IMG/VR virus record: IMGVR_UViG_3300037193_001894 | Span: 1 to 64,000 of that record | DNA length: 64,000 nucleotides | Reading direction: 5' to 3' (one strand) | Source of the DNA: a virus | Program-made: the position numbers and the translations under genes | The notes under the pieces: model-generated | Seen by the model: only the letters and a program-made list of their open reading frames with translations | What the model was told of the DNA's origin: nothing | Databases searched by the model: none | Shown: piece after piece, positions 4,140-53,574 of the stretch | Numbering within the stretch: the stretch's first letter is position 1 | Layout: each line of letters begins with the position of its first letter

Positions 4140-4174
4140 CACCCCTTCGGGGCGCTCAAGCCGTGACGGACAGC
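4140..4174 (-). promoter_or_regulatory. Putative phage late promoter, copy 1 (GCTGTC-N20-GAAGGGGTG)
   Basis: Same motif and spacing at 32027-32061 and 53540-53574; sits directly before the SD of the polyvalent gene. Confidence 0.65.
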
Positions 4175-4341
4175 GCAGCCACGAGGTCCTCGGAGGCGTC
4201 CTTGCGGGCGACGAAGCCCTGGCACACGAAACCCTTAGGCCCGGCGTGACAGCCGACGGCCTTGCACTTGGCTCCGGGGCGCTTGCCGTGGAAGGAGAAG
4301 GAGTGGCCGCAGTTGGCGCACGACTCCTGTAGCACTCCCAT
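4156..4341 (-). CDS. Small Cys/His-rich (putative zinc-binding) protein
   Basis: 61 aa, CANCGH...H...CKAVGCH...C; GGAGG SD upstream. Confidence 0.7.
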   Translation of the reverse strand: MGVLQESCANCGHSFSFHGKRPGAKCKAVGCHAGPKGFVCQGFVARKDASEDLVAALSVTA

Positions 4342-4406
4342 GAACGACCCTCCTAGCAGGTTTCCTTGGAGAGTCTCTCACAGAGGGCCGCTCAGGGGTA
4401 GACGTG

Positions 4407-4453
4407 GCGGAGCCCCCTCCACCGTGCTCGTCGGCCAGTGGAAGGGGCTCCGC
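4407..4453 (-). terminator. Stem-loop downstream of terL (putative terminator)
   Basis: Arms GCGGAGCCCC...GGGGCTCCGC with an extended imperfect inner stem; no clear U-tract. Confidence 0.5.
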
Positions 4454-4598
4454 TTCGAGTCCTTACGGGGTCCTGCCTCGCGCCGGGAGAGCCGGGTGTT
4501 TCGCCAGAAAGACCGACAAGCGCGTACAGCAGGGCCACGTGTGGCCTCGCGTCAAGGATCGCATACCAGGCAGGTCCGACACAACCCCAGGTTGCTTA

Positions 4599-6665
4599 CT
4601 AGCGCCGGGTGCCCCGACGCGGCATCCGGGAGGGCGTCATGTCGGCCCGGCCCCGTGCTCGGCCGAACGAGGAGAGTTGGGCCAGCCGCTGGTCGGTGTC
4701 GTGGTCGGCCGGTGCGCTCATCCCCGGGAACGGCTCCATGCCGCCCTCCATCGCCGCCCCGGGCCGGAAGGACGACAACTCCGAGTGCAGGAAGTTGTTC
4801 ACCTGCTCGCCGATCAGCACGTGGATGCACTCCATCATCGCGTCGGCGATGTCCTTGGACTGCACCGGACCCGACGAGGGGTGGTCCACCCGGCCGTTGA
4901 CCAGTTGGAGGAAGCGCAGTTCGAGTTCGGCCCGCTCGTAGTAGGGGGCGTGCACCAGATCGAGGTTGATCGCGGCCTTCGAGTTCTCCTTGACCTGCCA
5001 GTCGTACTGCCGCGTCGAGGTCTTCTCGAAGACCTGGACGTTCTTGGTCAGCCGGGGGTTGGCGGTGCGGATCTTCTTCTGCATCTTCTGGATCGAGGAG
5101 GTGGAGTTGTACTGGTCGTAGGTGAACTCGCCCGGCACGAAGGCCTTGATCAGGTTCTCCCAGATCCAGTTGTCCACGTGCTCGTAGTCGATGATGCTGT
5201 CGGGGAAGTCCTTCGGGTCGAAGTGGCCGATCTGGTCGAAGACGCAGTGCGGTCGGCCCTCCTCGTCGTACTCCACGTGGGCCAGGGCGTAGCCGAACTT
5301 GTCGTTGACCTTCGATGGGTCGGCGTGGCCCTTGTAGGTGTGCGCCATGATCCCCCGGGTCTGCATGAACAACTCGGGCGGGCCGTACTTGCTGGGGCGC
5401 TGCTGCCAGGGCCGGAAGACGTTCTTGACCTTCTCCTCGTTGAGGTAGGCGTCCAGGGCTGCGGCCCACTTCGCCCGGCGCTCGACCTTGAAGGTGTCGG
5501 GGTTGGCCCGCTCCTCGCGCTCCATCTGCTCGTCGTAGACCTGGATCGCCCCGCGCAGCACCACGAACTGCGGGTGCTCCACCATGTCGGGGTTCTCGGG
5601 GTCGTACTCGCCGAGGTCCCCCATGAACTCCTCGGGGAACAGCGGGAGGATCGCGGTGCGCTCCCAGTCCTTGTAGATGTCCCAGGAGGCCAACTGGAGC
5701 GAGAGCATGTCGGGGTAGGCGAAGTCCCCGTTCTCGTCCTTCTCGTTGGCGTGCAGCCAGTTGTCGTAGAACTGGCCCAGCATCTGCCAGGGGCTCGACG
5801 GCTCGACGATGAAGGCGTCCTTGCCGAACTGGTCCAGCGAGGGCTTCGCGGCCTCGTAGACCTCACCGGCCGACCGGTTGGCTCCGGAGGCCACCACGTG
5901 GGCCATCTCGTCGTAGGCCTGCATCATCGAGGTCGGACCACGACCGGCCATCACCGTGGACTCGCGGGGCTGGATGATGAACGTCGCCTGGTCCCGCTCG
6001 GTGCGGATCCCCTTGGCTGCCTGGTTCCGCATCCTCACGAAGTCGTGCGGCGCGTAGATCGACAACTTCTCGGTGTGGTCGTCGCTGATGTAGGGGGCGA
6101 AGCACGTCGAGCCGGTGATCACGTTCACCAGGTCGCCGAAGACCGTGGCCTTGGCCTGGTCGCGCTTGCCCGCGAAGATCAGGCAGACCAACTTCTTGTC
6201 GCGGTCCACCCCGTAGAAGCCCTGCGGGTCGCCCTTGGCCATGTAGTTCCAGAGCACGTAGGCCATGCACAGCGCCGTCACGTGGCCCTTGCCAGCGCGT
6301 CGGCCCATGACCAGCAGGACCTCGCGGAACCACTTGTGGCCCCGAGCCCGCAGCAGCCGCATCTTGAACAGCACGCCGGGGGCCAGCCCCTCGGTGCCGT
6401 TGCTCAGCCGGTAGGCCTCCTCCCACTCCTCGATGACCGTGTAGTCGTAGGGGGTGAACAGGTCCTCGCGGAGGAAGACGACCTTGATCAGCGTCGCCTG
6501 GCGGGGGTAGAGGTTGCCACGGTTGAGCCACTTCTCCCCGCACACGAAGGTGATCGGGTCCGGCACCTCGATACCGGTGAACAACTGGTGCATCGTGTCC
6601 AGGCCGAACGCCAAAGGGGGCGTACCCGCTTGGGATACGCCCCTCAGTGCCGTGGCCGAGGACAT
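4599..6665 (-). CDS. terL: Terminase large subunit
   Basis: Walker A VMGRRAGKG, Walker B AYDEMAH, motif III PSSP, C-terminal RNase H-like nuclease (HADPS...KDIADA). Confidence 0.9.
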   Translation of the reverse strand: MSSATALRGVSQAGTPPLAFGLDTMHQLFTGIEVPDPITFVCGEKWLNRGNLYPRQATLIKVVFLREDLFTPYDYTVIEEWEEAYRLSNGTEGLAPGVLFKMRLLRARGHKWFREVLLVMGRRAGKGHVTALCMAYVLWNYMAKGDPQGFYGVDRDKKLVCLIFAGKRDQAKATVFGDLVNVITGSTCFAPYISDDHTEKLSIYAPHDFVRMRNQAAKGIRTERDQATFIIQPRESTVMAGRGPTSMMQAYDEMAHVVASGANRSAGEVYEAAKPSLDQFGKDAFIVEPSSPWQMLGQFYDNWLHANEKDENGDFAYPDMLSLQLASWDIYKDWERTAILPLFPEEFMGDLGEYDPENPDMVEHPQFVVLRGAIQVYDEQMEREERANPDTFKVERRAKWAAALDAYLNEEKVKNVFRPWQQRPSKYGPPELFMQTRGIMAHTYKGHADPSKVNDKFGYALAHVEYDEEGRPHCVFDQIGHFDPKDFPDSIIDYEHVDNWIWENLIKAFVPGEFTYDQYNSTSSIQKMQKKIRTANPRLTKNVQVFEKTSTRQYDWQVKENSKAAINLDLVHAPYYERAELELRFLQLVNGRVDHPSSGPVQSKDIADAMMECIHVLIGEQVNNFLHSELSSFRPGAAMEGGMEPFPGMSAPADHDTDQRLAQLSSFGRARGRADMTPSRMPRRGTRR

Positions 6666-7105
6666 CAGTGCTTGTGCCCCGCGTGCTGCTGCTCAAGCGC
6701 CTTCATGGCTGCCGGGTCGGTCTTGATGACGCCCTTGTCGCCGAGTTCGAGGATGTCGTTGGTGACCTCGTGCACCTGCCGGTCGTGGTCGAAGTCCTTG
6801 CGCTCGGTGCGGTCGGAGATGCAGATCTCGGGGATCAGCACGCCGGGGATGTTGGTGTCCCACCAGGCCACCTGGACGATGAAGCCGATCTCGGCGAACC
6901 GCTCGTAGATCTCGCGGTTGAAGGCGTCGAGGTTGGTCCGTCGGCTGGAGCCGAGACGCTCGTTGAGCGCGGCGACGATCCGCTCGATCTCCATGATCTC
7001 CGAGTCGTGGATCTCGATCTTGGCGGTCAGCCCGGGAGCGTTGGGCTCCTGCTGCCGGGGCTGGTTCTGGCCGATGATCGGGATGTTCGGGTCGTTGAGG
7101 TTCAC
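6665..7105 (-). CDS. Hypothetical protein
   Basis: 3' part of ORF 6665..7513. GTG start overlaps the upstream TGA (GTGA); phage-like codon use from MNLNDPNIP. Confidence 0.7.
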   Translation of the reverse strand: MNLNDPNIPIIGQNQPRQQEPNAPGLTAKIEIHDSEIMEIERIVAALNERLGSSRRTNLDAFNREIYERFAEIGFIVQVAWWDTNIPGVLIPEICISDRTERKDFDHDRQVHEVTNDILELGDKGVIKTDPAAMKALEQQHAGHKH

Positions 7106-7875
7106 GCTGCCAACTCCAGGTTGTTGAGTCGGACGGTCTTCCGGCCGACGGGGAAGCACGCCTCGCCCCAGGTGCGGAGCAGGTCGCGCAGGTCTTCGTA
7201 CCGGATCAGGCCGGTGCCGTTGATGCCGTACTCGGTCCCCCAGGAGTTCACCCACCGGAAGACCCGGTAGCGCTTCCAGTAGTCCTCCCCCGGGATGCGC
7301 ATCGAGGGGTGGTAGCCGGTGACGCAGAGAGCGTGCCCGCCCACCTCGTCGCCGGTCACCTCCACCAGGCCCGAGGGGCGGGTGGAGTACATGCCTTCGA
7401 GCCAGGGGATGCCGATCACGGCCGGACCCTTGACGCTGACGCCCATCCGCAGGTCCTCGATCCCGAAGGCCCACTCGTGGCCGGTCTGGAGCCCCAGCAC
7501 GTCGCGTACCCACTTGGCCCCGGCGTTGACGCTGGTGCCCTCGTAGACCGGTGCCTCACCCTCCCACTCGTCGTTGCGCTGCGACCAGCGGTACCCGGCC
7601 CTGGCGTGCGCCTCGGCCTTCTCCTTGGTCACGTAGGGGTCCGGGTGGGGGCTGGCCATCAGTTCGTGGGTCCAGGCGTGGTTGACGCAGGACCCCTCCC
7701 GGTACTGGTCGAGCCGGATCTTGGAGGGCGTCCAGAACTTCGGCTCGTCCGGGACGGTGGTGGCGATCGAGGCCCGGACGGGGTAGACCAGCGACTGGGC
7801 GTCGTGGATGGAGACCCACCCCAGCCGGGGGTCGTCGGTGGGGAAGGTCTTCACATCGAGCGTGGGTGCGGTCAT
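7102..7875 (-). CDS. Papain-like (C1) cysteine peptidase
   Basis: DQYREGSCVNHA (oxyanion Q, catalytic C), GGHALCVTGY (H), VNSWGTEYGINGTG (N). Confidence 0.88.
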   Translation of the reverse strand: MTAPTLDVKTFPTDDPRLGWVSIHDAQSLVYPVRASIATTVPDEPKFWTPSKIRLDQYREGSCVNHAWTHELMASPHPDPYVTKEKAEAHARAGYRWSQRNDEWEGEAPVYEGTSVNAGAKWVRDVLGLQTGHEWAFGIEDLRMGVSVKGPAVIGIPWLEGMYSTRPSGLVEVTGDEVGGHALCVTGYHPSMRIPGEDYWKRYRVFRWVNSWGTEYGINGTGLIRYEDLRDLLRTWGEACFPVGRKTVRLNNLELAA

Positions 7876-7882
7876 GGGGTCC

Positions 7883-8953
7883 TCAGTTCAGGCGGGAGTG
7901 GCAGAGGTTGCATCGGGCGGCGTGGTCGGAGATGGCCTGTCCTCCGGCCCGCTCCAGCGCCCGCCTGGTGGAGATACGGCTGCGGATCTCCGGGTTGTTG
8001 GCCTGGTTGGTGATGTGGTTGACCAGGTGGAACATCGTCACCTCGTCCTCGGCCATCACCGCGTCAGGGAGGAGGTCCTCCATGCGGCCGATGGTCCGGG
8101 TCGGGAGCCCGTACTCCTGCGACATCCGGCGCAGCATCCCAGTGCGGTCGTCGTCGATCTTCTGGCTGCGCAGGTCGTAGAAGTGCTTGATGGACTTCTC
8201 CACGCCCTCGAACGCCCGCTTGGCCTCGGACCCGAACATGGCCAGGATCTCGCTCTCGTCGGCCCCGCGAGCGTCGATCCGCAGGCCCAGGTTGGGGATC
8301 TCCATCCCGTTGGTGCAGGCCAGCCGGAACAGGTACTCCTGCACCCAGGGGGCGAGGTTCTGCTTGCGGTTCTGCCCGACCCGCACCCCGCCGTGGGTGA
8401 TGTCGCCGATCTTGCGGTCCCCGCCGATGCCCCGGTCGAAGCCCTCGGGCACGATCACGTCGGCCCGGAAGTCGTCGGGCTCGCTCCACCACTCGACGAC
8501 CTGGGACTCCTCGGGCAGGAAGTCGATCAGCCGCTCCACCAAGTCGGCGACGGCGATCCGGCTGGTGTCGCCCCGGTAGACCTCGCGGATGCCGAAGTCG
8601 TTGTACTTGACGACCAGCGGCTCCTCCTTGGACCGGGAGATCCGGTGCTCCAGGATGAACTGCTGCTCGTCGCTGGGGATCCGGCCGAGGAACTTGGTCG
8701 GGATGTCGAAGAAGCCCGCGAGCGCGGTGAGCCCTCGGGGGGTCGCGGCGATCTCGTGCTTGCCGACGGTGATGGTGCCGACCCGGCGCTCCTCAGCCTC
8801 ATCCTCGGAGAGCCCGGCGTGGTCGGGCTCGGACTCCTCCTCGGTCAGCACGACCCGGACATCGACGCTGTTGCACGCGGCGGTGCTGCGGTTGTCGCGG
8901 ACCTCGTGCGCGAGGTCTGCGAGGGTGATGAAGTCTGTGTCTCGCAGGAACAT
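7883..8953 (-). CDS. DUF932-like protein
   Basis: FRLACTNGM motif typical of the DUF932 family; AGGAG SD. Confidence 0.6.
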   Translation of the reverse strand: MFLRDTDFITLADLAHEVRDNRSTAACNSVDVRVVLTEEESEPDHAGLSEDEAEERRVGTITVGKHEIAATPRGLTALAGFFDIPTKFLGRIPSDEQQFILEHRISRSKEEPLVVKYNDFGIREVYRGDTSRIAVADLVERLIDFLPEESQVVEWWSEPDDFRADVIVPEGFDRGIGGDRKIGDITHGGVRVGQNRKQNLAPWVQEYLFRLACTNGMEIPNLGLRIDARGADESEILAMFGSEAKRAFEGVEKSIKHFYDLRSQKIDDDRTGMLRRMSQEYGLPTRTIGRMEDLLPDAVMAEDEVTMFHLVNHITNQANNPEIRSRISTRRALERAGGQAISDHAARCNLCHSRLN

Positions 8954-8998
8954 CGTGGCTCTCCTTCTGTTGGGGTCTGGGGCAGCGTACTAGATTTA

Positions 8999-9679
8999 TT
9001 ATTCTTGCTGCTCCGCCCCTTCGGGCACCTCGTGGGCCTCCCCCTGGACCACATCCCGGCCTGCGGCCTTCGCCGCCAGGGCCTTGAGGATCGGGTTGCG
9101 GTTGAGGGCCTGTCCGTAGCGCTGGAAGACCTCGGGAGGCATGTGCTGCCGGGCCACCTCCAGGTGGATGAACATGGCCTCCTGGTACGCCTCGATGTCG
9201 TAGCCCTCGTCGGAGGTGGACTCGATCTTGTGCTGGAACTGGAGCGCCTGCATCAGGTCGCCCATGGACGGCTCGATCTCGCCGGACATCAGCCGCTCGA
9301 AGCCGCGCTTGACGACCATCTCGTTGACCACCACGTAGTCGGCCAGGTCGTCCTTGCCCGCGATCGCGGCCCCGAGTTGCTCGGCCCGGCGATCCACGAT
9401 CTGGCGGCGGGTGCTGGCCGGGGTGGGCAGGTGGCCCTGCCGGACGTGGTTGGCGATCGCCTCGTCCGAGGGGTGCGGGAGAGACCCGACCGGCATCTTC
9501 TGCAACTCGCGACCGATCGCCGAGTACGACCGGCCGATGATCAACTCGTTCTCGATGAACTGCCGGTGCGGGCTCTGGCAGGTCCGGCAGTTGTGGACCG
9601 AGACCATCGGGTAGTCGTGGCCCCCGACCCGGACCATCGACATCGAGGTGCTCGGCCGACGCTCGTGCGGATTGCTCAT
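8999..9679 (-). CDS. Zn-finger/HTH protein, candidate terminase small subunit
   Basis: CRTCQSPHRQFIENELIIGRSYSAIGRE...IANH followed by a helical region; a few genes upstream of terL; ATGA overlap. Confidence 0.5.
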   Translation of the reverse strand: MSNPHERRPSTSMSMVRVGGHDYPMVSVHNCRTCQSPHRQFIENELIIGRSYSAIGRELQKMPVGSLPHPSDEAIANHVRQGHLPTPASTRRQIVDRRAEQLGAAIAGKDDLADYVVVNEMVVKRGFERLMSGEIEPSMGDLMQALQFQHKIESTSDEGYDIEAYQEAMFIHLEVARQHMPPEVFQRYGQALNRNPILKALAAKAAGRDVVQGEAHEVPEGAEQQE

Positions 9680-10035
9680 GTGGGGTCCCATCCGGCCGTC
9701 CCCGAGAGGGGGCCTTCCTGTCCGGGCAGGCGGTTCTCCTGGACGTGTGAGGCCAGGGACTCGGTGCGCCTGCCCCGGACCACCCCGTCGCGGCTGTTGA
9801 GGTGCTCTGAGGAGGGGTTCCAGGCTCGGTGGTACATGCCCTTGCGGACCGAGGCGTCGGGGGTCCCCGAGGCCGAGTAGACCTCTCGGCCGCGCCGGTC
9901 CTGCTCCTTCCAGGGGGTCAGGATGTCGGACTTCTCGCTCATGGAGGTGACCCCCTCCAGGCTCTTGCGGATCAGTTCTGTGGCGGCGTCCTCCAACGCC
10001 TGGTGTACGCCGTAGCGCACGATCCCCCCGGTCAC
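9676..10035 (-). CDS. Hypothetical protein
   Basis: 119-aa ORF fills the gap and is coupled to both neighbours; alternative start at ~9942. Confidence 0.6.
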   Translation of the reverse strand: MTGGIVRYGVHQALEDAATELIRKSLEGVTSMSEKSDILTPWKEQDRRGREVYSASGTPDASVRKGMYHRAWNPSSEHLNSRDGVVRGRRTESLASHVQENRLPGQEGPLSGTAGWDPT

Positions 10036-10036
10036 C

Positions 10037-10414
10037 TCAGACCGCCTGCGCGAGTGCGGGCGTCGGGGTGTGGAACTTCCGGAGTTGGCCCGACTCGATC
10101 ATCACGATGATCCGCTTGAGGCCGTTGTTGGCGTACACGGCGACGGGGCTTGTCTCGGAGACCCCCATCATCCGTGCGGCCTCACGTTCCTTGATGTTGC
10201 GGTACAGGCACAACTCGATGGCCTGGCGCTGGCGGGGGCTTAGGTGGACGCGGCACTCGTAGAGGTACTGGATGTCCCACAGGGACCACTCTGTGCCGTC
10301 GGGAGCGATCAGGGTGTCGGTGCCCTCGGACTCGTAGAGGGACCGGAATGCTTGGAGGTTACGGAGCAACTCACGGAGTACCGCGAGGTTGATGGGTGCG
10401 ATCTCGCCCTGCAA
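10037..10414 (-). CDS. Sigma-70 region-4-like HTH transcription factor
   Basis: LSPRQRQAIELCLYRNIKEREAARMMGVSET...NGLKRI; start uncertain. Confidence 0.7.
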   Translation of the reverse strand: MQGEIAPINLAVLRELLRNLQAFRSLYESEGTDTLIAPDGTEWSLWDIQYLYECRVHLSPRQRQAIELCLYRNIKEREAARMMGVSETSPVAVYANNGLKRIIVMIESGQLRKFHTPTPALAQAV

Positions 10415-10553
10415 CTAAACCAGTGGCTCACCTTCTCTGGCCCCAAGTTCGGTGAACACCCTGTAGGCGGGTGGACGGTCATCCGCTCCGTCAGACACCA
10501 GGGTAACTCTGGTACCACCACTTTTTCCAGGAAGTCTTGGTAGAGACACTTCA

Positions 10554-11237
10554 CTAGGAGTAGAGCGAGTCCTTGAGCCGCTGGCCGAGCCGCTCCAGCG
10601 AGCGCACCAGGGCGTCGGCCTTGCGGCTGTAGAGGCTCTCGAAGATCGCGAAGTAGCGCTCGTCGCGGGAGCCAGCCCGGGCTCGCTGGGTCATCGCCTC
10701 GTCGGTCTTGCGACCACCCTGGGAGGTGTCGGAGAACTCGACCGCGAACCGCTCCTCCCACTGGGCCTTGGCGAACATCGCCTCACCCCAGGCGTCGGCA
10801 GCCTTCTGCTCCCACTCGAACAGACGGGTGTTGATCTGGAACAGGAACTCGTCGCGCTCCTTGGAGCCGAGCCGGGAGTAGTCCTCGATGTACCGCCCCG
10901 AGACGGTCTTGGCCCAGACCGGGAAGCCGTAGCGGTCGGTGAGGACCTCCCCGTCGTCGTTCACCTCGGGCTCGCGCACGATGTCGTAGATGTCGTTGAT
11001 GATCTGGTAGGCGTCGGCGAAGTTCGTCAGCACCCGGTCCTCGGCGGTCTGCAAGATCATCGAGATCAGCGGCGCGTCGTGGCCGTGCCAGTCGGTCCGC
11101 ATCCTGGTGAAGCCCGGCGTCCGGGTCTCCTTGGTGCGGTCCTCGTGCACGTCCACCTCGGCGGGCGTCTCGAAGTCCTCCGAGGCCTCCTTGACGGCAG
11201 CCTCGACCGCCTTCGCCTCAGCAATCTCGGTGCTCAT
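10554..11237 (-). CDS. Hypothetical helical protein in the recombination cluster
   Basis: 3' part of ORF 10554..11390 from MSTEIAEAK; GGGGAG SD. Confidence 0.7.
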   Translation of the reverse strand: MSTEIAEAKAVEAAVKEASEDFETPAEVDVHEDRTKETRTPGFTRMRTDWHGHDAPLISMILQTAEDRVLTNFADAYQIINDIYDIVREPEVNDDGEVLTDRYGFPVWAKTVSGRYIEDYSRLGSKERDEFLFQINTRLFEWEQKAADAWGEAMFAKAQWEERFAVEFSDTSQGGRKTDEAMTQRARAGSRDERYFAIFESLYSRKADALVRSLERLGQRLKDSLYS

Positions 11238-11238
11238 C

Positions 11239-11451
11239 TCAGGCTCCCCGGGGCGTGAAGGTCTTCCAGCCATACAGCACTGCGTCGCAGAGCGAGCAGG
11301 CCATGCGGTCCTGCTGCTTGCCCGGCAGGGTGGGGTGGTCGCGCACCTCGCGCTCCATCCGGTGAAACGTCCCGGGCTTGTCCGACCCATGCGGCCCCTT
11401 GCCGTTGGGGCATGGAGCGCTCGTGTCGAACTCGGGGTGCCTGATCTCCAT
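11239..11451 (-). CDS. Small hypothetical protein (C..H..CxxC)
   Basis: MEIRHPEFD...CSLCD; start overlaps the upstream stop (TGATG). Confidence 0.6.
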   Translation of the reverse strand: MEIRHPEFDTSAPCPNGKGPHGSDKPGTFHRMEREVRDHPTLPGKQQDRMACSLCDAVLYGWKTFTPRGA

Positions 11452-12089
11452 CACTGCTCGCTCCGCTTCTTGGCCCAGAGGTACTGGAGCCCGAGCAACA
11501 CGGAGTCGTGCACGTCCTGGTTCCAGCGGGTGGTGTTGCGCCGCTCCCGGGGGATCAGCAGGTTGACCCGGGAGGTGCCGTGCACCTTGTCGATCGAGGG
11601 TGCCCCCACGAGGTTCGCGTAGGCCTGCTGGCGGCTGATCATCACGATCGGGCAGGGCCAGATCGGGTGCTGGTCGTTGGCCCGCCTGACCTCGCGGGCA
11701 GCCATCAGCGAGGACTCCGTTCGGTACCCCATCACCGCAGGCATCTCGTGGACGATGGCCTCGACGCCCTGCCACGCCTTGACCACCTCCTCGATGGCCT
11801 CGCCCATGATCGCGGCCTTGGCGAAGGTCTCCTCGAACCCCTTGAGCCCGGCCGGAGCCTTGGCCTCCAGCCTCCCGCCAGCGTGGATGTAGAGCCCCGG
11901 CTCGGTGACGCTGTTGCCCGGCTCGTTCGCCACCAGGGACCATCCGGTCTTGGTCAGCGTCTGGTCGAAGGACAGCACCGCGCCATAGGCGAAGTCGTCC
12001 AGGGTGGGCTCGGTGAAGGCCCGCCGTCGGCCCCGCTTCCCCTTGTGCTCGCTGATCTTCTCGCGCAGGTCTTCCAGAGCGCTGGTCAT
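11451..12089 (-). CDS. RuvC-like Holliday junction resolvase
   Basis: VLSFDQTLTKTGWS, IVHEMP, NQDVHDSVLLG acidic residue pattern; ATGA overlap. Confidence 0.75.
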   Translation of the reverse strand: MTSALEDLREKISEHKGKRGRRRAFTEPTLDDFAYGAVLSFDQTLTKTGWSLVANEPGNSVTEPGLYIHAGGRLEAKAPAGLKGFEETFAKAAIMGEAIEEVVKAWQGVEAIVHEMPAVMGYRTESSLMAAREVRRANDQHPIWPCPIVMISRQQAYANLVGAPSIDKVHGTSRVNLLIPRERRNTTRWNQDVHDSVLLGLQYLWAKKRSEQ

Positions 12090-12931: not shown

Positions 12932-13425
12932 CAGCAGCACCCCACCCTCGACGCCTCGTAGGGGAACCTGGCACAGCCCCGGCACGGGCCGCGCTTGACG
13001 AACATGCCGGGCACCGAGTCGGACTCGACAGGCCCGTGCTCGTGGTTGCCCTCCAGGCACCCGATCTCCTCGATCACCGCCATCTTGTTCGCGGCCTCCA
13101 GCACCTCGGCCATGTCGTGGGCGTTGACCGCTACCCAGTCCTTGTCCACCTCCAGCGCCTCGTTCTTGTACCAGCGCAGGCCGATCATGGGGCGCTCGCC
13201 ACCGGCCTGCTCGCGGGCCTTGGCGATCATCGACAGCGGGATGCTCAGGCTCTGGCGCAGCGTGGACTTGCCGTCCCAGGCGAACGCGAACCGCATGTTG
13301 TGGCGGCTGGTGCGGCCGTCCATCGGGTTGCGCCACTGGTTGCCGGAGCCCCTGCTGGCCTTGCCCTCGAACAGGGCCTCCAGGAACGCCTCGTGGGCGT
13401 CCCCCATCCTCTTGTTGAGGCTCAT
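12931..13425 (-). CDS. Hjc-like (PD-(D/E)XK) resolvase/endonuclease
   Basis: KRMGDAHE...RGSGNQW..PMDG...WDGKST...KAREQAGGERPMIGL. Confidence 0.65.
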   Translation of the reverse strand: MSLNKRMGDAHEAFLEALFEGKASRGSGNQWRNPMDGRTSRHNMRFAFAWDGKSTLRQSLSIPLSMIAKAREQAGGERPMIGLRWYKNEALEVDKDWVAVNAHDMAEVLEAANKMAVIEEIGCLEGNHEHGPVESDSVPGMFVKRGPCRGCARFPYEASRVGCC

Positions 13426-14887: not shown

Positions 14888-14897
14888 GGTGCTCTCC

Positions 14898-18662: not shown

Positions 18663-18685
18663 CGGCTCTCCCTAGAGCAAGAGCC

Positions 18686-18724
18686 CCCTCCCACCCCGAT
18701 GGGGGTCGCGGTGGGGTGGGAGGG
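18686..18724 (-). terminator. Hairpin between the ssb-like gene and dnaE
   Basis: Perfect 12-bp arms CCCTCCCACCCC / GGGGTGGGAGGG. Confidence 0.6.
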
Positions 18725-18739
18725 AGCCCTCACGTTCTC

Positions 18740-25723: not shown

Positions 25724-25783
25724 GGTCGATTCAAGTGAATCGACCCAGATCACACAGTAGGACCCGGTAACGACGGAGGTCAA
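25724..25783 (-). promoter_or_regulatory. SigA-like promoter of the replication operon with a downstream palindromic operator
   Basis: TTGACC (25778-25783)-N18-TACTGT (25754-25759); perfect inverted repeat GGTCGATTCA-AG-TGAATCGACC at 25724-25745. Confidence 0.65.
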
Positions 25784-30237: not shown

Positions 30238-30267
30238 AGACTACCAAGCATTCCCGGGGTTACACAA
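30238..30267 (-). promoter_or_regulatory. SigA-like promoter
   Basis: TTGTGT-N18-TAGTCT with a TGG extension, between a terminator and an SD. Confidence 0.6.
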
Positions 30268-30343: not shown

Positions 30344-30886
30344 TCAGCGCCTGATCCTGCGCAGGCGGTAGGCGAGCCCCACAGACACGCCCCCTGCCAC
30401 CGTCAACGGTCCCCAGACGCTCGGCCCGGAGAACACCAGGACCGTAGCGAGCGTGACCACCAGCATGACCTCACCGAGCCCCATGATGCCGCCCTCGCCG
30501 CGCACCGGGCCACCCCCGGCCCCTCCGGGTGCCGTCACCGGGTCGTAGCGAGGTGTGGTGCGGATCGAGCCGACCAGGGTGGTGAGCGTGCCGAGGAAGG
30601 TCACGACGACGGTCACCTGGTCGGGGGTCCAGTGCAGTACTCCGAGGCTGACGCAGAAGACCACCCCGGACCGGCCCAGGTCGGTGAGGACCATCACCGG
30701 GAAGGGCTTTGTCAGGAAGCCCTTGGCCACCGCGAGGATCGCGATGAACAGGGCTACCAGGTTGGTCTGCTGGTCGCCGGAGAGGCTGAACAGCCCGAGA
30801 GCGATCGCCACGACGACGAAACTCTCGAACGCATCCAGGAGCAGCGCGGGCTCCCGGACCAGTGCCTTGAAACGGTCCACCGTCAC
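30344..30886 (-). CDS. Holin-like multi-pass membrane protein
   Basis: Several hydrophobic helices, basic C-terminus, GTGA-coupled to the endolysin. Confidence 0.75.
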   Translation of the reverse strand: MTVDRFKALVREPALLLDAFESFVVVAIALGLFSLSGDQQTNLVALFIAILAVAKGFLTKPFPVMVLTDLGRSGVVFCVSLGVLHWTPDQVTVVVTFLGTLTTLVGSIRTTPRYDPVTAPGGAGGGPVRGEGGIMGLGEVMLVVTLATVLVFSGPSVWGPLTVAGGVSVGLAYRLRRIRR

Positions 30887-31839
30887 TGTCCTCCTGATTC
30901 GATCTGGTCGTCGTTCACCACGACGGTGAACGACACGTCCATGGCCTCCAGCAGGCCCTTGATCTCCTGCGGGGTGGCCCCCTGGTCGATCTTGTCGATG
31001 GCGTCGCGGAGTAGGCCCTTGATGGCCCGGTCGCGGCGGTAGGAGCCCTCCATGAAGGCGTCCAGCCGCCGCAGCACCTGCGCGACCGAGACCGACTTGT
31101 CGGGGTGGGGGTAGATGTCGTCGCTGAGTTGCATCTCGTCCTCCTGCGGGGGCTGTTCGTCCTGGATGCCGAAGCGGCGGACCTCGGCCCGCCCGGATGA
31201 TGTGGTGTAGCCGAGCCGGTCGATCTTGCGGGTGGGAGCCCAGGTCTTGTGCTCCATGTGGTAGCCCGAGAGGTCCGCGCTCCGGGCTGGCCGCTTGCCC
31301 TCGCCGTTGATGCGCCAGATCGCGTGGGTCAGCCCGGCGTTGGCCCGGCCCATGAACTCGCGGAAGGTCATGCTCTTGCCGGTGCGCCGGTTGGTGTACG
31401 TGCGGTCCCAGACCGCCTCGGACAGCCCGCCCTCGTACTCGGTGCCCCAGGCGTAGGGCCGGGCGTTGTCCTTGGGGATCGTGTAGGAGCCCATCGGCCC
31501 CCGGACCGTCAGCGGGCCTCCGTAGCCGGGGTGGTTGGCCAGCCCCAGGCACTTGATCCGGTAGACGAGATCGACGCCTGCGGTGCCGTTGCACAGGGGA
31601 CCGCCCAGGGCCGAGGTGCCGACCGTGACCAGGTGCAGGCCGGGCGTCGGGTTGCTCGGCGTCGGGTTGGAGACGATGTGGTGCGAGGTGACCGCGAAGG
31701 GGCGCAGCGCGTTCCACCGGTCGCCGGAGACGGGACGGCCCTCGACCACCTCGATGGAGACCTCCGGCACGCCGAAGTCGAGCAGCACGTCCTTGACGAT
31801 CCTGGCCCGCTCGATCGCCCGATCGCGTCCGGCGCTCAT
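30883..31839 (-). CDS. Endolysin, N-acetylmuramoyl-L-alanine amidase (Amidase_2 type)
   Basis: SHHIV, LANHPGYG, GTEYEG, MEHKTWAPTRKID zinc-amidase motifs. Confidence 0.85.
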   Translation of the reverse strand: MSAGRDRAIERARIVKDVLLDFGVPEVSIEVVEGRPVSGDRWNALRPFAVTSHHIVSNPTPSNPTPGLHLVTVGTSALGGPLCNGTAGVDLVYRIKCLGLANHPGYGGPLTVRGPMGSYTIPKDNARPYAWGTEYEGGLSEAVWDRTYTNRRTGKSMTFREFMGRANAGLTHAIWRINGEGKRPARSADLSGYHMEHKTWAPTRKIDRLGYTTSSGRAEVRRFGIQDEQPPQEDEMQLSDDIYPHPDKSVSVAQVLRRLDAFMEGSYRRDRAIKGLLRDAIDKIDQGATPQEIKGLLEAMDVSFTVVVNDDQIESGGQ

Positions 31840-31994
31840 CGGTCGATCCCGTTCGACTCGTCGTCGAGGTCGTCGATCGCCTCGTACAGGACCTGGCCGA
31901 GCACGGCCTGCTCGGGACCCACCTCGTTCGGGTGGTCCAGGCCCGCCTCGGGGTCGGTGTCGATCGCGGGCAGGTCTACTGGCTGCTCTGACAT
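31836..31994 (-). CDS. Small acidic protein, first gene of the lysis cassette (not in ORF track)
   Basis: MSEQPVDLPAIDTDPEAGLDHPNEVGPEQAVLGQVLYEAIDDLDDESNGIDR; GAGGGG SD; ATGA overlap with the endolysin. Confidence 0.65.
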   Translation of the reverse strand: MSEQPVDLPAIDTDPEAGLDHPNEVGPEQAVLGQVLYEAIDDLDDESNGIDR

Positions 31995-32026
31995 ATCCCA
32001 CCCCTCTGAATGACGAAGCGCCCCTG

Positions 32027-32061
32027 CACCCCTTCAAGGGGCTCAGGGACGCTTCGACAGC
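32027..32061 (-). promoter_or_regulatory. Putative phage late promoter, copy 2
   Basis: GCTGTC-N20-GAAGGGGTG upstream of the lysis cassette. Confidence 0.65.
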
Positions 32062-35511: not shown

Positions 35512-35727
35512 GACTCTCCCTGGTGTCGTGCTGGCCCCTCTGGCGGGGGCAGGACCACTGCCGGTCCCTGGGACCATCTTACCACATTCCTTGGAGTGGC
35601 CTTTTCTCACAGGATTCCGGGGGTGGGGGCCATTAGGCCTAGTAAGGCTTGACAGGCTTATTAGGCTCTACCAAGTCGGACAGGCTCTCCTGGCCAGAGC
35701 GGTTCTAAAGACAGATACCCCGGTCTA

Positions 35728-40543: not shown

Positions 40544-40549
40544 CGCTCA

Positions 40550-43598: not shown

Positions 43599-43607
43599 GT
43601 CGATTCC

Positions 43608-49100: not shown

Positions 49101-49863
49101 GGGCGATCGCGGCCCTGGTCGGCCAGAGGATGTCCGAGGCGCTGTACTGGCGCAGCACGAAGTCCACCGGGGAGCCGAGCAGGTCGGTGGAGGAGGAGAA
49201 GGTCTCGGCCAGGTCCACCTGCTGGGTGGGGGTGAGGTCGCCCGGCAGGTCGGTGCGGTCGGCGACGGTGTGGCCGACCTGGAAGTCCTGCACGGCCAGC
49301 GAGTAGTTGACCGGATCCCCACGGCGGTCCCGGGGGACGCCCTTGGTGGGGATGCGGGTGAGCACCAGCCGGAACCGGCTGGCCTTGATGTTGCGCGAGT
49401 GCACGTTCACGTCGTGCCAGTGGCCCGCGCCCCGGTGCTGGTGGTGGCGGTGGGTGTTGTCGAAGACGCCCTCGTGGACCACCTTCGGGGTGGAGTCCTT
49501 GAGGGTGACCACCACCGGCTTGCCGTTGCGCTTGCGGCGGACCGGACGCCACTCCTCGTACCGCTCGTTGTAGTACTGGAGCCAGGCCCGGCAGGGGAAG
49601 TTCGACAGCCTGAACTGGAACTTGTTGACCAACTTGGTCGTGTTCAGGCTCACCTCCATCACCTCGCGGATCGGCGAGGTGGCCCGGCGCTGCGGGGTGG
49701 CCCAGAACCGGTTCGGGGAGTCCCACTTGGTGCCGCCCAGGGCAGCAGTGTTGGCCTCGTAGAGGCTCTTGAGGTCCTCCAGCGGCACGCCGTCGATGTA
49801 GAGCCGGGAGAGCACCTCTCCGTTCAGGCCCGGGGCCACGGAGATCGCGGGGATCTTAGCCAT
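46138..49863 (-). CDS. Large baseplate/tail structural protein
   Basis: ~1240 aa from MAKIPAIS; follows the baseplate genes; TW.D.E..GTW repeats. Confidence 0.75.
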   Translation of the reverse strand: MAKIPAISVAPGLNGEVLSRLYIDGVPLEDLKSLYEANTAALGGTKWDSPNRFWATPQRRATSPIREVMEVSLNTTKLVNKFQFRLSNFPCRAWLQYYNERYEEWRPVRRKRNGKPVVVTLKDSTPKVVHEGVFDNTHRHHQHRGAGHWHDVNVHSRNIKASRFRLVLTRIPTKGVPRDRRGDPVNYSLAVQDFQVGHTVADRTDLPGDLTPTQQVDLAETFSSSTDLLGSPVDFVLRQYSASDILWPTRAAIARTPKSQRVGEDDIWKCEPQPVPYAVVNLYADARDGNGGPQTVDRFEVDPTTSGVSVNLYYSAQALDLSGGFEASDSPLRFPGLQPRGAVSSKASGVLFPAEDFGYLDIDNTMIQWDPAKDWWVGLAIQPQFASTSTDPRVFIDWPGLRVEWKDSQIVATVRGATLAAPATFVVNDSLRVVVVSEGDQVQMLMPDFNAGASAAPYVPQASGIDLATGLPFADQDLAGTLRFGALRKDSNADVGRGGYILAGAILKQGAFDGEEFLSADTLGEFLARPEIGEERPDHTRNALLRQNPDTRTVGDDSINPWGFVGGPGDIYESLEWTPINRDFKLHKGLLKFDPVLARFFKFEFTNLVAQPYSSIFPMTRKVKVFTRETYENSVALRNVSGASEASPGGSGAKVNQDLGAVVRFADQQRLMNLVHSENVYPEYTPTEALYAEDPNAQDRLKALSPSFNLIPWHQGVRQAPRFTQVGRHYYETIEVRHTAKVAYFVGLNSIRMFKVDYTAADDTEEYLLHFHDMDVLETSARPWRLDSPSGLTAASLIGGYVEATSKVLSSRRNVRGIQFATSQTPPHQMLSDPDFNDPRLLRWRRYGGAQITQSSDLNTDIGTTVRVDRVAVAGDSLASNGFWNFIEQMGTWNDIEGSEPDPNLPVWDDLAADTLEGTPASTGGIESSQFLYPAVGGRIYAAARVYAPTNLGGPLHLQIVAETGEVLADEVAYAQPGRITEWYVGHTVGEGGSVPDPGRTWADVEALGTWDAIEASDPAPYAPTWDDVALVNQAEGFEGYDGRVSVRLYQEGATRDTFYVDNISLFEDPIVWEFSNDDGNTWYRVFDIRNNPHAAFLFPSVPSETQDVGDGSSLRFRVRSYRQNAHVSALLIRPWYSTMELGAMPRETIEHGGPNQTPYDQFPAVTDSPMFKTWSKPIPENWWFLYRQFLLQEPPVVETPTAFWRNLSINPGGESGNTDGWEAEGGTVVATQWIREVPRG

Positions 49864-51229
49864 GCGGCACGGCCTCCATCCGGGGCTCCGAGAAGGGGTG
49901 CGAGACGAGCACGCCCTCCGAGGCGTACCGAGCCGCCAGCGCACGGCGGGGGTCCATGATCGACCGGTCGGCGGTGAACCGCTCGCGGGTGCCGTCGCGG
50001 TAGGTCACCAGTTGGTCGGTGCGGGTGTCGGTGATCGGCCCTCGGCCTGGCTCGTCCTTGGCGTCGTCGTTGGGGTCGAAGGAGTACGACTTCACCGCGA
50101 CCACCTCGGGGTTGTACGACCACTCCGCAGCCTGCTGGACAGACCACGGGGGCTTCGGGATCGAGCGGCGGTCGGAGGCGAGCAGGCCCTCCAACTCCTG
50201 GCGCAGCGAGAGCGGGTACGGCTCGATCCCCTCGGGGGTGATCAGGTCGCCGCGAGGGGCCACCCGGGTGGAGACCTCCCAGTAGTTGGAGTCGGCCACC
50301 AGGTTGGTGATCGGCGCGTCGCGGTGCAGGGCCACGCCGTCGGGGTTGACCGTCAGCAGGACGCTGGCGGGCTTGAGCACGTTGAGCACCCGGATGATGG
50401 CGCTCATGTCCTCGGCCCGCTGCCGGTCCGCCTCGTCCTGGCCGTCCTCGTCGGCGATCCGGATGTAGTCCTTCTTCGGGTGCACGACGACCTCGGCCCG
50501 GGTGTTGATCCCGGTGCGGCCGATGGTCACGATGTCCTCGACCTGGCTCCACGACGGCAGGTTCGGGCTGGGGTTGGACTGCTCGATCTGGTCCCAGGTG
50601 CCCAGGGCCTCGACCTCGTTCCAGGTGAGCCCGGTGCTGCCGGTGCCGAACGTGTCGAGCAGGCTCCAGACCTCGTAGATCTCGCACTCGACCTGGGTGA
50701 TCGCCTCGGCCGCAGCCTTGATGCCCGGCAGCGTCGCCCCGAGGTTGATCGCGGAGGCCAGCCTGTAGATCCGGTCCCGGAACGCCGCGTCGCGGTTCTC
50801 GATCTGGTCCCACTCGTTCGGCGTGGCCGTGTCGGTGTGGGGGTTGATCCAGAGCAGTTCGTTGGCGAAGCGCGAGATCCCGAAGATCGCCCCGTAGAAC
50901 CGGTCGAGGTCGTAGAAGTGCGTGCTCTGCAAGGCGTTCTGGAACTGCACGACCGTGTTGCGCTTGCGCAGTTGCCCGGCCCCGGACTCGCCGAGCAGGG
51001 CCTTCATCAGCCGGACCAGGTGGCTGTCCTCGCGCAGGTCGTAGAGGTTGTCCGGGAAGTGCGCCAGCCGGTCGCTGACGGACTTGTCCGGGATGGCCAT
51101 GCCGGTGGCCGAGGAGAGGCCGGTGACCTGCGGGGTGCTCGGGTCGATCTGGGTGGACATGATGTCCTGGAACGGCCGGTCGGTGCCGTCGAAGAACGGC
51201 TCGTTCTGGGTGAAGATCGCCTCGGTCAT
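49856..51229 (-). CDS. Baseplate wedge-like protein
   Basis: LDRFYGAIFGISR...FRDRI...GATLPGIKAA (gpI-like pattern); follows baseplate J. Confidence 0.7.
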   Translation of the reverse strand: MTEAIFTQNEPFFDGTDRPFQDIMSTQIDPSTPQVTGLSSATGMAIPDKSVSDRLAHFPDNLYDLREDSHLVRLMKALLGESGAGQLRKRNTVVQFQNALQSTHFYDLDRFYGAIFGISRFANELLWINPHTDTATPNEWDQIENRDAAFRDRIYRLASAINLGATLPGIKAAAEAITQVECEIYEVWSLLDTFGTGSTGLTWNEVEALGTWDQIEQSNPSPNLPSWSQVEDIVTIGRTGINTRAEVVVHPKKDYIRIADEDGQDEADRQRAEDMSAIIRVLNVLKPASVLLTVNPDGVALHRDAPITNLVADSNYWEVSTRVAPRGDLITPEGIEPYPLSLRQELEGLLASDRRSIPKPPWSVQQAAEWSYNPEVVAVKSYSFDPNDDAKDEPGRGPITDTRTDQLVTYRDGTRERFTADRSIMDPRRALAARYASEGVLVSHPFSEPRMEAVPHG

Positions 51230-53100
51230 CACAGGCCCCCGAACGAGTTCTCCGCCCGCAGCACCTTGACTGCGGAGTGGAACACCGGCAACTCCCCGTC
51301 GCCGAACCGCAGGTCGGAGGGTCGCCCGGTGGCATCGACGAACGACTGCGTGACGACGCCCTCGACCATCCGCTGCACGCCGACGGTGTAGCCGTTCGGG
51401 GCGGCGGAGTTGTACCCGGCGTGGTCGCCGCCGTGCAGGAAGCGCACGTTGTCCACGCCCGGGACGTTGTGGACGATCTGGAGCAGGTCGGAGATCTGCA
51501 CCCGGCCCTGGAAGCCAGCCCGGACGAAGTGCTCGCCCAGCGCCCGGTCGATCTCGGAGTTCACCACCGGCTGGTTGGCCCGGGGCTCGTACATGATCGC
51601 CAGGGAGAGCCGCAGTTCGACCAACTTCGCCTGGTGGGTCCTGGCGTCCACCCCGAGCAGCCGCCAGCGCTCCACGGCCGTCTGGATGCTCGCCACCATG
51701 GCGTTGTAGAGGTAGGGCGCGGTGCTCTGCCCGCCGACCGTGAAGACCGCGCCGTCGGGCGGCAGGTAGCCGACGGCGTTGTGCCACTCCAGGCCGAACG
51801 CGGAGGTCGGGGTGTAGCCGAAGGCGTCGTCCTGGTGCACCACCCGGTAGGCGTAGCGGACGGTCTCCCCGCCGATCGTGGCCTCGGTCCCCATCGGGTT
51901 CGCTGCGGTCGCCAGGCCGAACACCTGGCCGCTGACGCTCAGCGTCGAGGGCACGGCCATGATCGGGCCGAAGGCGAGCGGGACGAAGACGTTGCCGATG
52001 GCCGGAGGGGTCTCGTCGAAGCGGCGGAACTTGTGCCGCGACAGGGGGTCCACCGTGGGCAGCGCGATGTCGTTGAAGACGTTGGTGGAGTTGAACACGA
52101 CGGTCTGCACCGCAGACTGAGCCCGACGGCCTCCGACCCAGAGGTCCACCCGGTTGGTGATGCCCGACTCCGGCCGGTTGCGGCTGGCCAGAGGCTGGTA
52201 CTCGAAGTCCACCTCGATCATGGTCTCGTCGGGGATCTTGGTGGCGTCGAGCACGTTGACCTTCGGCGGGTTGACCGTGGTGTCCCAGGAGTAGTCGCGG
52301 CCCTTGAGCGCGATGTCTCCGGCGTCGATGTTCTCCCCGACGAACACCGGCTCGCTGTAGATGTAGAAGGCGTCGTCCACGGTGGTCTGGCCGACCCCGG
52401 CGACGATCTGCACCTGCTCGCGGCGCTTCTTGCTAGCGCCGATCACGTTGGCGGCGTAGCAGTTCGGGTCGTCCAGGGCGACGCCGAGGTACATCTGCTC
52501 GGTGCCCGCGAGGTTGCGGAAGACCGTCTTCTTCCAGCGGGTCCGCAGTTCCTCGTCGGTCTCCTGCGAGGTGCCCCCGGTCAGCGGGCTGACGTTGGCC
52601 ACCGAGCCGACCCCGGCGATCGGGGTGGAGATGGCCGTCAGAGCGTTGGCCGCGAGGTTGCCAGACGGGCCGCTCTCGACCGCCTGGACGGCCACGGTGA
52701 CGCTCATCGCCCCGGGCTCGATGTAGGCCCCCGAGACGGTCTGCACGACCACCGGGGGCGTCGTGGTGGAGGTGATCTCGGTGTTGACCGGGATGAAGAC
52801 CGTGCTGGTCAGCGAGGAGGACGCGGCGCGGGTGAACACCACGGTGCCCGAGGCCCGCTTGCCCGCCAGCCGCGCCAAGCCGAACAACTGCACGAAGTCG
52901 TCGAGGTCGGCCTCGATCTTCGAGTCGATGTCGTACTGGTAGGACAGCAGGTAGGAGTCGATGTAGGCCTCGGCCACGGACTCCGACACCGCGTCGATGA
53001 TCTTGCGGGTGGTGGTGCCTACCGAGGTGTCGAGTTCGGGATCGGTCAGCCGCAGGGTGGAGATGATCTGGCTGGCCACATCGTTGATTCGCGCCGTCAC
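51229..53100 (-). CDS. Baseplate J-like protein
   Basis: LDDF..FGLAR...ASGTVVF, VQAVESGPSGN, LTGGTSQETDEELRTR. Confidence 0.9.
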   Translation of the reverse strand: MTARINDVASQIISTLRLTDPELDTSVGTTTRKIIDAVSESVAEAYIDSYLLSYQYDIDSKIEADLDDFVQLFGLARLAGKRASGTVVFTRAASSSLTSTVFIPVNTEITSTTTPPVVVQTVSGAYIEPGAMSVTVAVQAVESGPSGNLAANALTAISTPIAGVGSVANVSPLTGGTSQETDEELRTRWKKTVFRNLAGTEQMYLGVALDDPNCYAANVIGASKKRREQVQIVAGVGQTTVDDAFYIYSEPVFVGENIDAGDIALKGRDYSWDTTVNPPKVNVLDATKIPDETMIEVDFEYQPLASRNRPESGITNRVDLWVGGRRAQSAVQTVVFNSTNVFNDIALPTVDPLSRHKFRRFDETPPAIGNVFVPLAFGPIMAVPSTLSVSGQVFGLATAANPMGTEATIGGETVRYAYRVVHQDDAFGYTPTSAFGLEWHNAVGYLPPDGAVFTVGGQSTAPYLYNAMVASIQTAVERWRLLGVDARTHQAKLVELRLSLAIMYEPRANQPVVNSEIDRALGEHFVRAGFQGRVQISDLLQIVHNVPGVDNVRFLHGGDHAGYNSAAPNGYTVGVQRMVEGVVTQSFVDATGRPSDLRFGDGELPVFHSAVKVLRAENSFGGL

Positions 53101-53528
53101 AGGGTCACCGTCCGGTTGAGTTCCACGTCCAGCCCGGCCTGAGTGGTCAGGCTGATCCGGATCGAGATCGAGTCGTCACGCACCTGGGCCTCGATGTCGT
53201 TGACCTTCCGCACCACGTCGGCCGTGGCGAAGCGGCTGCGGCGTCCGTTGAGCATGTCCTGGTAGACCTCCTGGTCCTGGATCGCGATGTACTGCGCGAT
53301 CACCCGGGACACCTCGGAGCGCACCTGGAACTCCATGTCCTCGGTCAGGGGCTGGCCGATGTAGTCGATGAGCACCGAGCCCCATCGGTCCCCGTGGAAC
53401 CGGTCGGTGCCCCAGCGCTCCCCAAGGGCCAGCGAGAGGTCCTGCCGGACCTTCGTCGCTCCGGAGACCACGGCGTGGCCGGACTGACCGACCACCAGGT
53501 CCCCGTTGCTGAGCGCGAGAGTCTTCAT
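53097..53528 (-). CDS. Baseplate wedge subunit (gp25/W-like)
   Basis: MKTLAL.NGDLV...QDL..ALGE..G.DRFH..WGS; directly upstream of J. Confidence 0.75.
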   Translation of the reverse strand: MKTLALSNGDLVVGQSGHAVVSGATKVRQDLSLALGERWGTDRFHGDRWGSVLIDYIGQPLTEDMEFQVRSEVSRVIAQYIAIQDQEVYQDMLNGRRSRFATADVVRKVNDIEAQVRDDSISIRISLTTQAGLDVELNRTVTL

Positions 53529-53539
53529 CCGTGCACCTC

Positions 53540-53574
53540 CATCCCTTCATGGGCCTCACCGGGGGACCGACAGC
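53540..53574 (-). promoter_or_regulatory. Putative phage late promoter, copy 3
   Basis: GCTGTC-N20-GAAGGGATG filling a short intergenic gap before the baseplate genes. Confidence 0.65.

Follow-up and report, generated by a model that had tools for sequence, protein, structure and literature searches.

What is the function of a rigid, two-part sequence that recurs in the gaps between the genes of a large phage? The question is raised by a 64,000-nucleotide (nt) stretch of viral DNA (the window), which forms the first part of the 81,351 base pair (bp) IMG/VR viral contig IMGVR_UViG_3300037193_001894 (completeness rating 55%). An earlier note on this stretch had pointed to the motif GCTGTC-N10-TGAG-N6-GAAGGGRTG in front of three transcription units and had proposed a phage-specific late promoter. 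Comparison of the contig with related genomes leads us to a similar reading: we consider the motif to be a late-gene promoter of this phage lineage, with a probability of roughly 0.75.

The window has a G+C content of 67%, and all of its genes lie on the minus strand. On sequence grounds the contig is that of a large actinobacterial phage, kin of the Cluster C mycobacteriophages and of Rhodococcus phage E3. The major head protein shares 63-64% identity with its counterparts in Cluster C phages (Myrna, Catera, Bxz1 type) and in E3, and the gene order is as in E3: head, neck, sheath, tape measure, baseplate, helicases, DNA polymerase, recombination genes, a sigma region-4-like gene and terminase. 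A nucleotide search of the phage collection returned no close relative of the contig.

A rigid two-part motif between genes

An exact pattern search of the window returned three matches only, all on the minus strand and all where the earlier note had placed them. Copy 1 (4140-4174, matrix score 35.8 bits) precedes a giant 'polyvalent' gene, copy 2 (32027-32061, 38.8 bits) lies between a DinG-type helicase gene and a likely lysis unit, and copy 3 (53540-53574, 34.0 bits) precedes baseplate genes. The pattern did not occur in 100 dinucleotide-preserving shuffles of the window, a test that is circular by itself, the pattern having been written from the same three copies. With a tolerance of three mismatches, no further match appeared in the window. 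The remaining 17 kb of the contig held three more copies with at most one mismatch on the same strand (contig positions 67320-67354, 76122-76156 and 78976-79010). Another three keep GCTGTC, the 20-nt gap and GAAGGRRTG and lack TGAG; they are located behind the capsid gene (80365-80399), before a WhiB-like gene (76499-76533) and before the sheath gene (64033-64067). Rather than the three units first noted, the contig has nine copies in total, every one of them intergenic and on the coding strand.

Searched with GCTGTC-N20-GAAGGGRTG, IMG/VR yielded several contigs of 60-160 kb with multiple matches; in five of them, 6-12 sites each were present at one mismatch or less, in a strand ratio of 45:1, and a reversed control pattern had no match. 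Four of these relatives (G001, G002, G004 and G005, of which G001, G002 and G005 are complete) were analysed together with the present contig (G000), with gene calls in the relatives taken from third-position G+C. When up to two mismatches were allowed, there were 59 sites in forward and 3 in reverse orientation; every forward site is intergenic, although intergenic DNA makes up only 7-14% of each genome. With a 40-column matrix and a threshold of at least 20 bits, we obtained 66 forward sites (9 in this contig and 12, 16, 15 and 14 in the four relatives) and none in reverse, and the scores were two-peaked. A matrix built from G001, G002 and G005 only recovered exactly the nine sites of the present contig (26.8-33.5 bits); the next-best position scored 3.1 bits and the best reverse position 1.4 bits, a gap of more than 23 bits. 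The search over the full genome and its relatives, which the earlier note had recommended, therefore did not return sites at equal frequency inside genes and on both strands, the pattern that the note had named as speaking against a promoter.

The motif is rigid. Its spacer measured 20 nt in all 46 strict matches, and lengths of 14-19 and 21-24 nt never occurred. The core can be written as T-GCTGTC-N20-GAAGGGRTG-RRGR. Several columns that had no part in site selection are conserved as well, among them T at position -1 (50/59), A/T at 19 (51/59), C at 22 (41/59), C at 23 (58/59) and the purines at 36-39. Within the upstream box, TGTC is essentially invariant and positions 1-2 vary (G/C and C/A). 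The earlier description of a 20-nt spacer carrying TGAG thus holds for the spacer length, but TGAG (positions 17-20) is lineage-specific: it forms a consensus in no genome but this contig and G004, its closest relative, and of its letters only the A at position 19 persists elsewhere. The total relative entropy of the matrix, about 35 bits, is far above what is needed to specify one site in 150 kb. On the forward strand the 9-mer occurs almost only together with the upstream box, so the motif is not a T4-type late promoter with a single extended -10 box.

The second box varies among related phages. It reads GAAGGGGTG in this contig, GAAGAGGTG in G005 and Myrna and CAATAGGYR in E3, and a further variant is CAATAGGTG. 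Together with the GGAGG that frequently follows it, the second box (positions 27-40) also resembles a tandem extended Shine-Dalgarno (SD) sequence (AAGG.GGTG), a likeness for which we can offer only purine richness.

Downstream genes, terminators and host-type promoters

The nine sites of the contig precede a DUF3626 (SopF-type) enzyme gene behind the capsid gene, a 181-amino acid gene, the WhiB-like gene, a 211-amino acid gene, a neck-region gene, the tail sheath gene, the baseplate genes, the likely lysis unit and the giant multi-module gene; no function was assigned to the 181- and 211-amino acid genes. In the complete relatives the virion block is filled with about one site per 4 kb, and one more site stands before the orthologue of the giant gene. 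The replication and recombination blocks of the window (about 4.6-31.8 kb and 32.1-43 kb) contain no site, and copy 2, which lies between them, precedes the lysis unit. That is, the sites are oriented and intergenic, stand before virion and lysis genes and away from the early and replication regions, and recur at orthologous places in relatives, as would be expected of a late regulon.

The most common distance between motif and start codon is 9-12 nt, with GGAGG abutting the motif; in the remaining cases it is 16 to about 90 nt. GGAGG follows the motif at once in about one third of the sites. The statement that each copy in the window lies just upstream of an SD is correct for copies 1 and 3, which have GGAGGTG directly next to the motif (for copy 3 with an ATG 11 nt downstream), but not for copy 2, where the SD follows only after about 20 nt and a 52-amino acid open reading frame (ORF) starts 32 nt downstream of the motif.

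In the ORF list the giant multi-module gene downstream of copy 1 spans 609-4142 on the minus strand, where the longest ORF starts inside the motif. Judged from the letters, its start is likely the GTG at 4127, 8 nt after GGAGG. The gene has no PHROG match, and its orthologues in G001, G002 and G005 are also preceded by the motif, which justifies the earlier counting of the polyvalent protein in the predicted late regulon. A 59-amino acid ORF that overlaps copy 1 (4156-4335, minus strand) is doubtful and scores weakly as coding sequence. Downstream of copy 2, a three-gene unit (30344-31994, minus strand) encodes a 52-amino acid acidic protein, a 318-amino acid likely amidase-type endolysin and a 180-amino acid multi-span membrane (holin-like) protein. 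This unit is likely a lysis cassette, as judged from a weak PHROG endolysin match (E = 4e-4) and the multi-span membrane protein; none of its proteins has a Pfam match. Copy 3 is followed on the minus strand by genes for a baseplate protein (53097-53528, phrog_2669, E = 5e-22) and a baseplate wedge protein (51229-53079, phrog_6, E = 1e-41), which are syntenic with gp121 and gp122 of E3. The gene kinds first assigned downstream of the three copies, namely the giant gene, the likely lysis unit and the baseplate genes, are borne out.

Many sites lie directly behind a strong hairpin. At a threshold of -23 kcal/mol or lower, a hairpin ended at most 8 nt upstream of 21 of the 66 sites, compared to 72 of 1,500 random positions; a first threshold of -18 kcal/mol, which 29% of the controls passed, did not discriminate and was replaced by this stricter one. 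In the present contig, the capsid-proximal and the WhiB sites are located directly behind a hairpin. At copy 2, a 19-pair hairpin (32014-32056, minus strand; -42 kcal/mol, z = -6.9, with none of 200 shuffles folding as well) directly follows the stop codon of the helicase gene and encloses the spacer and downstream box of the motif. It is probably the terminator of the helicase gene, sharing bases with the putative promoter at copy 2, and as such would keep early transcription from running into the lysis unit. At copies 1 and 3, no structure beyond that of shuffled sequence was seen (z = +0.7).

The motif was then set against promoters of the SigA type. We scanned intergenic DNA for TTGNNN-N18-TAnnnT or TGnTAnnnT, an E. 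coli-type scan being uninformative at 67% G+C. SigA-like promoters were found only at window positions 35584, 30267, 25914 and 25783, all in the replication region. The one at 30238-30267 (minus strand) reads TTGTGT-N18-TAGTCT with TGG before the -10, the one at 25754-25783 (minus strand) TTGACC-N18-TACTGT, and the intergenic scan detected an extended -10 (TGGTAAGAT) at 35576-35584 (minus strand). The 40-nt matrix of the motif contains no TAnnnT, its positions 27-35 being GAAGGGRTG, and in place of a TTGACA-like -35 at 16-19 nt from the -10 it has GCTGTC, with GACA on the opposite strand, at a spacing of 20 nt. The motif is not, as far as its letters go, a SigA promoter, and the contrast drawn earlier with SigA promoters elsewhere in the genome is upheld.

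From these observations we infer promoter activity and late timing. The order of terminator, motif, SD and gene, and the fact that nothing else is conserved in gaps as short as 54 nt, argue for a promoter at the motif itself. The proposal of a phage-specific late promoter gains support from sites that are intergenic, on the coding strand, conserved before orthologous virion genes and the giant gene, often behind a terminator and different from SigA promoters. Acting in this way, the motif would let transcription begin anew before the virion, lysis, WhiB and giant-protein genes, in many cases close behind a terminator that halts transcription of the upstream genes. Since the TAnnnT -10 hexamer is absent, the host SigA holoenzyme in its unmodified form is probably not the reader of the motif; a host RNA polymerase reprogrammed by phage proteins would more likely be needed. 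The probable start of transcription is at the purines that immediately follow GTG (motif positions 35-38), because in about one third of the sites the start codon is only 9-12 nt away and SD and spacer take up all of that distance. Such a start would place GCTGTC at about -35 to -30 and GAAGGGRTG at about -9 to -1, where the latter is not a -10 element of the sigma-70 type.

Candidate readers and rival explanations

If the motif is a late promoter, which protein reads it? The divergence of the second box among related phages points to a phage-encoded reader rather than a conserved host sigma factor. The window encodes a stand-alone sigma-70 region-4-like protein of 125 amino acids (10037-10414, minus strand; Pfam PF08281, 27.1 bits versus a cut-off of 25.7), which the earlier note had suggested for this role. 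Its nearest solved sequences are region 4 of PhyR, an extracytoplasmic function (ECF) sigma factor, FliA and SigF, at weak E values of 0.2-0.6. All 61 homologues are 101-179 amino acids long and comprise region 4 only. The gene is syntenic in G001, G002 and G005 and has the same neighbourhood in E3, whose gp160 carries the annotation of a sigma-70 region-4 protein; a homologue is also present in Catera. Cryo-electron microscopy of WhiA/WhiB complexes has revealed that sigma region 4 and the WhiA C-terminal domain make base contacts with GACA (PMC10243135). Because TGTC corresponds to GACA on the template strand, the core contacted by helix-turn-helix (HTH) domains of the region-4 type, the 10037-10414 protein is the best candidate for the reader of TGTC, and such a role is plausible.

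Other candidates were considered for the part of a sigma region 2 supplier or a partner. A split sigma factor, with the 227-amino acid neighbour of the region-4-like protein as the source of region 2, was rejected, as the model of this neighbour (predicted local distance difference test, pLDDT, 85) resembles T4 UvsY and not sigma. The 227-amino acid protein (window 10554-11237, minus strand) is conserved, with 354 homologues and no Pfam family; T4 UvsY chains are its best structural matches (probability 0.99, target template modelling score 0.66, E = 0.25), and its gene adjoins RecA-like, exonuclease and resolvase genes. According to the model it may be an actinophage UvsY analogue, and it probably belongs with the adjacent recombination genes. 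A DUF7236 gene (window 9676-10035, minus strand; 239 homologues) always follows the region-4-like gene in the contig, the relatives and E3, here with a gap of 1 nt. It was dismissed as a partner since its model was too poor (pLDDT 66, predicted template modelling score 0.23) and a search of the protein atlas was empty. We also rejected an identity of the 10037-10414 protein with WhiA, which is kept as an analogy only: the models that fit the protein are those of sigma region 4, and the box differs from GACAC. In the early region of G001 (L106, contig 52993-53325), a part of the genome missing from the present contig, a 110-amino acid LuxR/GerE-type HTH protein is encoded, possibly another transcription regulator.

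A more specific mechanism can be sketched tentatively, and we regard it as rather doubtful as a whole: a partial sigma would run late transcription in Cluster C-like actinobacterial myoviruses, in that the free-standing region-4 protein, replacing host sigma region 4 or acting beside it, would read the inverted GACA at about -35, and a second phage factor, possibly with the WhiB-like protein, would read the G-rich box that replaces the -10.

Several observations weigh against a late promoter read in this manner. Nearly all genes lie on one strand, so that the strand bias of the sites says no more than that they point in the direction of transcription. A recognisable -10 element is missing, the DNA that would have to melt is G+C-rich, and the TGTC box is inverted relative to the canonical -35 TTGACA. 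Neither a sigma region-2 protein nor a phage RNA polymerase was found that could account for recognition of the downstream box; region 2 (PF04542), the part of a complete sigma-70 factor that binds core polymerase and recognises and melts the -10, had no match in the five genomes, and the region-4-like protein by itself is not such a factor. Outside the close clade the co-occurrence of factor and motif is imperfect: Catera has a homologue of the region-4-like protein, yet its related 9-mer lacks a strand bias, whereas Myrna has a strand-biased 9-mer, yet no region-4-like homologue was found in it. The RNA record of the phage consists of two small contigs in one RNA library, a plant-associated metatranscriptome (342 and 240 nt, at least 99% match; L007 13321-13662 and 16883-17122), and its sequence was absent from two raw RNA runs with the same organism label. 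We also observed that 78-97% of sampled words of L007:9000-17351 are present in four runs of one 2022 study; the runs containing the contig are stored as contigs only, with the type of library unstated.

Could the motif instead act in the messenger RNA, as a processing site, a ribosome standby site or translation enhancer, or as the site of a translational regulator in late leaders? It occurs on the coding strand only and near gene starts, its 9-mer is rich in purines and resembles an SD (AAGGAG is present in the variant GAAGGAGTG, and GGTG fits an extended SD), and GGAGG directly follows about a third of the sites. But RNAalifold found no consensus structure among the 66 distinct sites (energy 0.0) and no column pair with more than 0.18 excess pairing, and the spacer plus 9-mer fold only slightly better than control sequence, which leaves a conserved structure supported by covariation out of the picture. 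Start codons follow at anything from 9 to about 90 nt, not at the fixed short distance of a start-linked translation signal; two boxes at an invariant distance of 20 nt around an unconserved spacer fit protein-DNA recognition; and the third of the sites just behind a terminator would often not be transcribed from upstream. We give this explanation a very small chance. An oriented operator of the stoperator kind, or a loading site for elongation or antitermination, at which a phage DNA-binding protein blocks or licenses late transcription from promoters elsewhere, seems only marginally less improbable. Stoperators are asymmetric, mainly intergenic, oriented with transcription and present in many copies per genome, and the L5 stoperator consensus also contains TGTC (PMC3029335); an HTH protein is, moreover, conserved in the lineage. 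The short gaps, however, contain no other conserved candidate promoter, that of 54 nt before the baseplate gene, at window positions 53529-53582, being nearly filled by the motif. Sites directly behind strong terminators need a restart and not a block, and a two-part site of 40 nt restricted to late genes differs from a 13-nt operator spread genome-wide.

The remaining two alternatives accept a promoter and change its reader. An unrecognised phage-encoded RNA polymerase, in place of a reprogrammed host polymerase, is as improbable in our view as the operator: with about 35 bits of information, a fixed geometry and conserved letters up to and across the likely start site, the motif is more like a phage-polymerase promoter than one of the sigma-70 type, and about half of the genes lack an assigned function. 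Against this, the three complete relatives yielded no T7-type (PF00940) or multisubunit (PF00623) match, in a search that for the T7 type had no positive control and that very divergent polymerases would escape, and the sigma region-4-like and WhiB-like proteins, partners of host polymerase, are conserved. Least probable of the four is a host alternative sigma factor, with the phage borrowing a host promoter class. Among actinobacterial alternative sigma factors, many recognise boxes that are rich in G or contain GTC, and together with the missing phage region-2 domain this would favour the explanation. Yet a search for the strict motif in the genomes of 185,579 species gave single, scattered matches in unrelated phyla at chance level, without actinobacterial clustering, and on this result both a host promoter class and prophage copies were rejected. 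The differences in the downstream box among related phages (GAAGGGGTG, GAAGAGGTG, CAATAGGTG) fit co-evolution with a phage factor. A late promoter served by host polymerase and phage proteins is the reading that we carry into the comparison with other phages.

Cultured relatives and known promoter classes

In the cultured phage E3, GCTGTC-N20-CAATAGGYR, or a version with a weaker upstream box, stands before gp76, gp84, gp86, gp87, gp100 and gp102; about eight sites were seen (L128, 36535-36569, 44516-44550 and others), and the genes that follow encode LysM-like, lipase, tail fibre and structural proteins. E3 therefore shares with the present phage the upstream box, the 20-nt spacing, the location before late genes and a region-4-like protein (gp160) encoded in the same neighbourhood, but its downstream box differs at positions 1, 4 and 5 and some of its upstream boxes are weaker. 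Myrna has 10 forward and 0 reverse GAAKAGRTG 9-mers (variants GAAGAGGTG and GAATAGGTG). As far as such comparisons reach, the motifs of E3 and Myrna may be cognate late promoters in cultured phages. We make no such claim for Bixzunavirus, as the related 9-mer occurs six times on each strand in Catera.

How does the motif compare with promoter classes that phages are known to use? To our knowledge, its 20-nt spacing fits none of the known classes. T4 middle promoters combine a MotA box with a sigma-70 -10 and depend on AsiA-driven sigma appropriation. The motif is likewise two-part, has a phage-specific upstream box instead of the host -35, a candidate phage protein that would read it with host polymerase, and a temporal gene class downstream. 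In contrast to these promoters, with their normal -10 and host sigma, it lacks TAnnnT, its candidate factor is a region-4 look-alike and not a MotA or AsiA homologue, and its spacing is different and invariant. SPO1 gp28 and gp33/34 and phiEco32 gp36 are phage-encoded sigma factors with a region-2 domain; their promoters are also phage-specific, well-conserved two-box elements before middle or late genes, but here only a region-4 domain protein was found.

Start-associated sequences of Cluster K phages lie at a fixed short distance from start codons. Like these sequences and the Cluster A stoperators (PMC3029335), the motif is an oriented, intergenic actinophage element present in many copies. 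It differs from the former in its variable distance to the start codon, and from the latter, which are 13-nt repressor sites found genome-wide in temperate phages, in being 40 nt long, two-part and limited to late genes. WhiA/WhiB promoters (PMC10243135) offer a likeness in the asymmetric GACA box, read there by an HTH domain that mimics region 4, and in the involvement of a WhiB-family protein; the WhiB-like gene of the present phage is itself preceded by the motif. The WhiA motif, however, is GACAC at variable position and strand, whereas in the phage the template strand carries GACAG or GACAT, at a constant spacing from the second box, and the 10037-10414 protein matches sigma region-4 models and is devoid of WhiA's homing-endonuclease-like domain.

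Most likely, the motif belongs to the phage-specific late promoters, a known kind, and forms a class not described in the literature that we searched, which held no description of the motif or of late promoters in Cluster C/E3-type myoviruses. Few late promoters of mycobacteriophages have been characterised at all (2022 review, PMC9262239). The motif provides a precise, testable consensus for the whole clade. It would assign genes without known function, including that of the giant multi-module protein and the SopF-type enzyme gene, to the late regulon, and it indicates the small, conserved region-4-like protein as the likely switch. As E3 and Myrna may carry cognate versions, the prediction is open to bench testing in cultured phages. 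If a protein with region 4 only is indeed the reader, this would be a new variant of host-polymerase reprogramming; and if a partial sigma runs late transcription, these phages would use a promoter architecture without the -11A/-7T melting signal and thereby a new way of appropriating the host polymerase.

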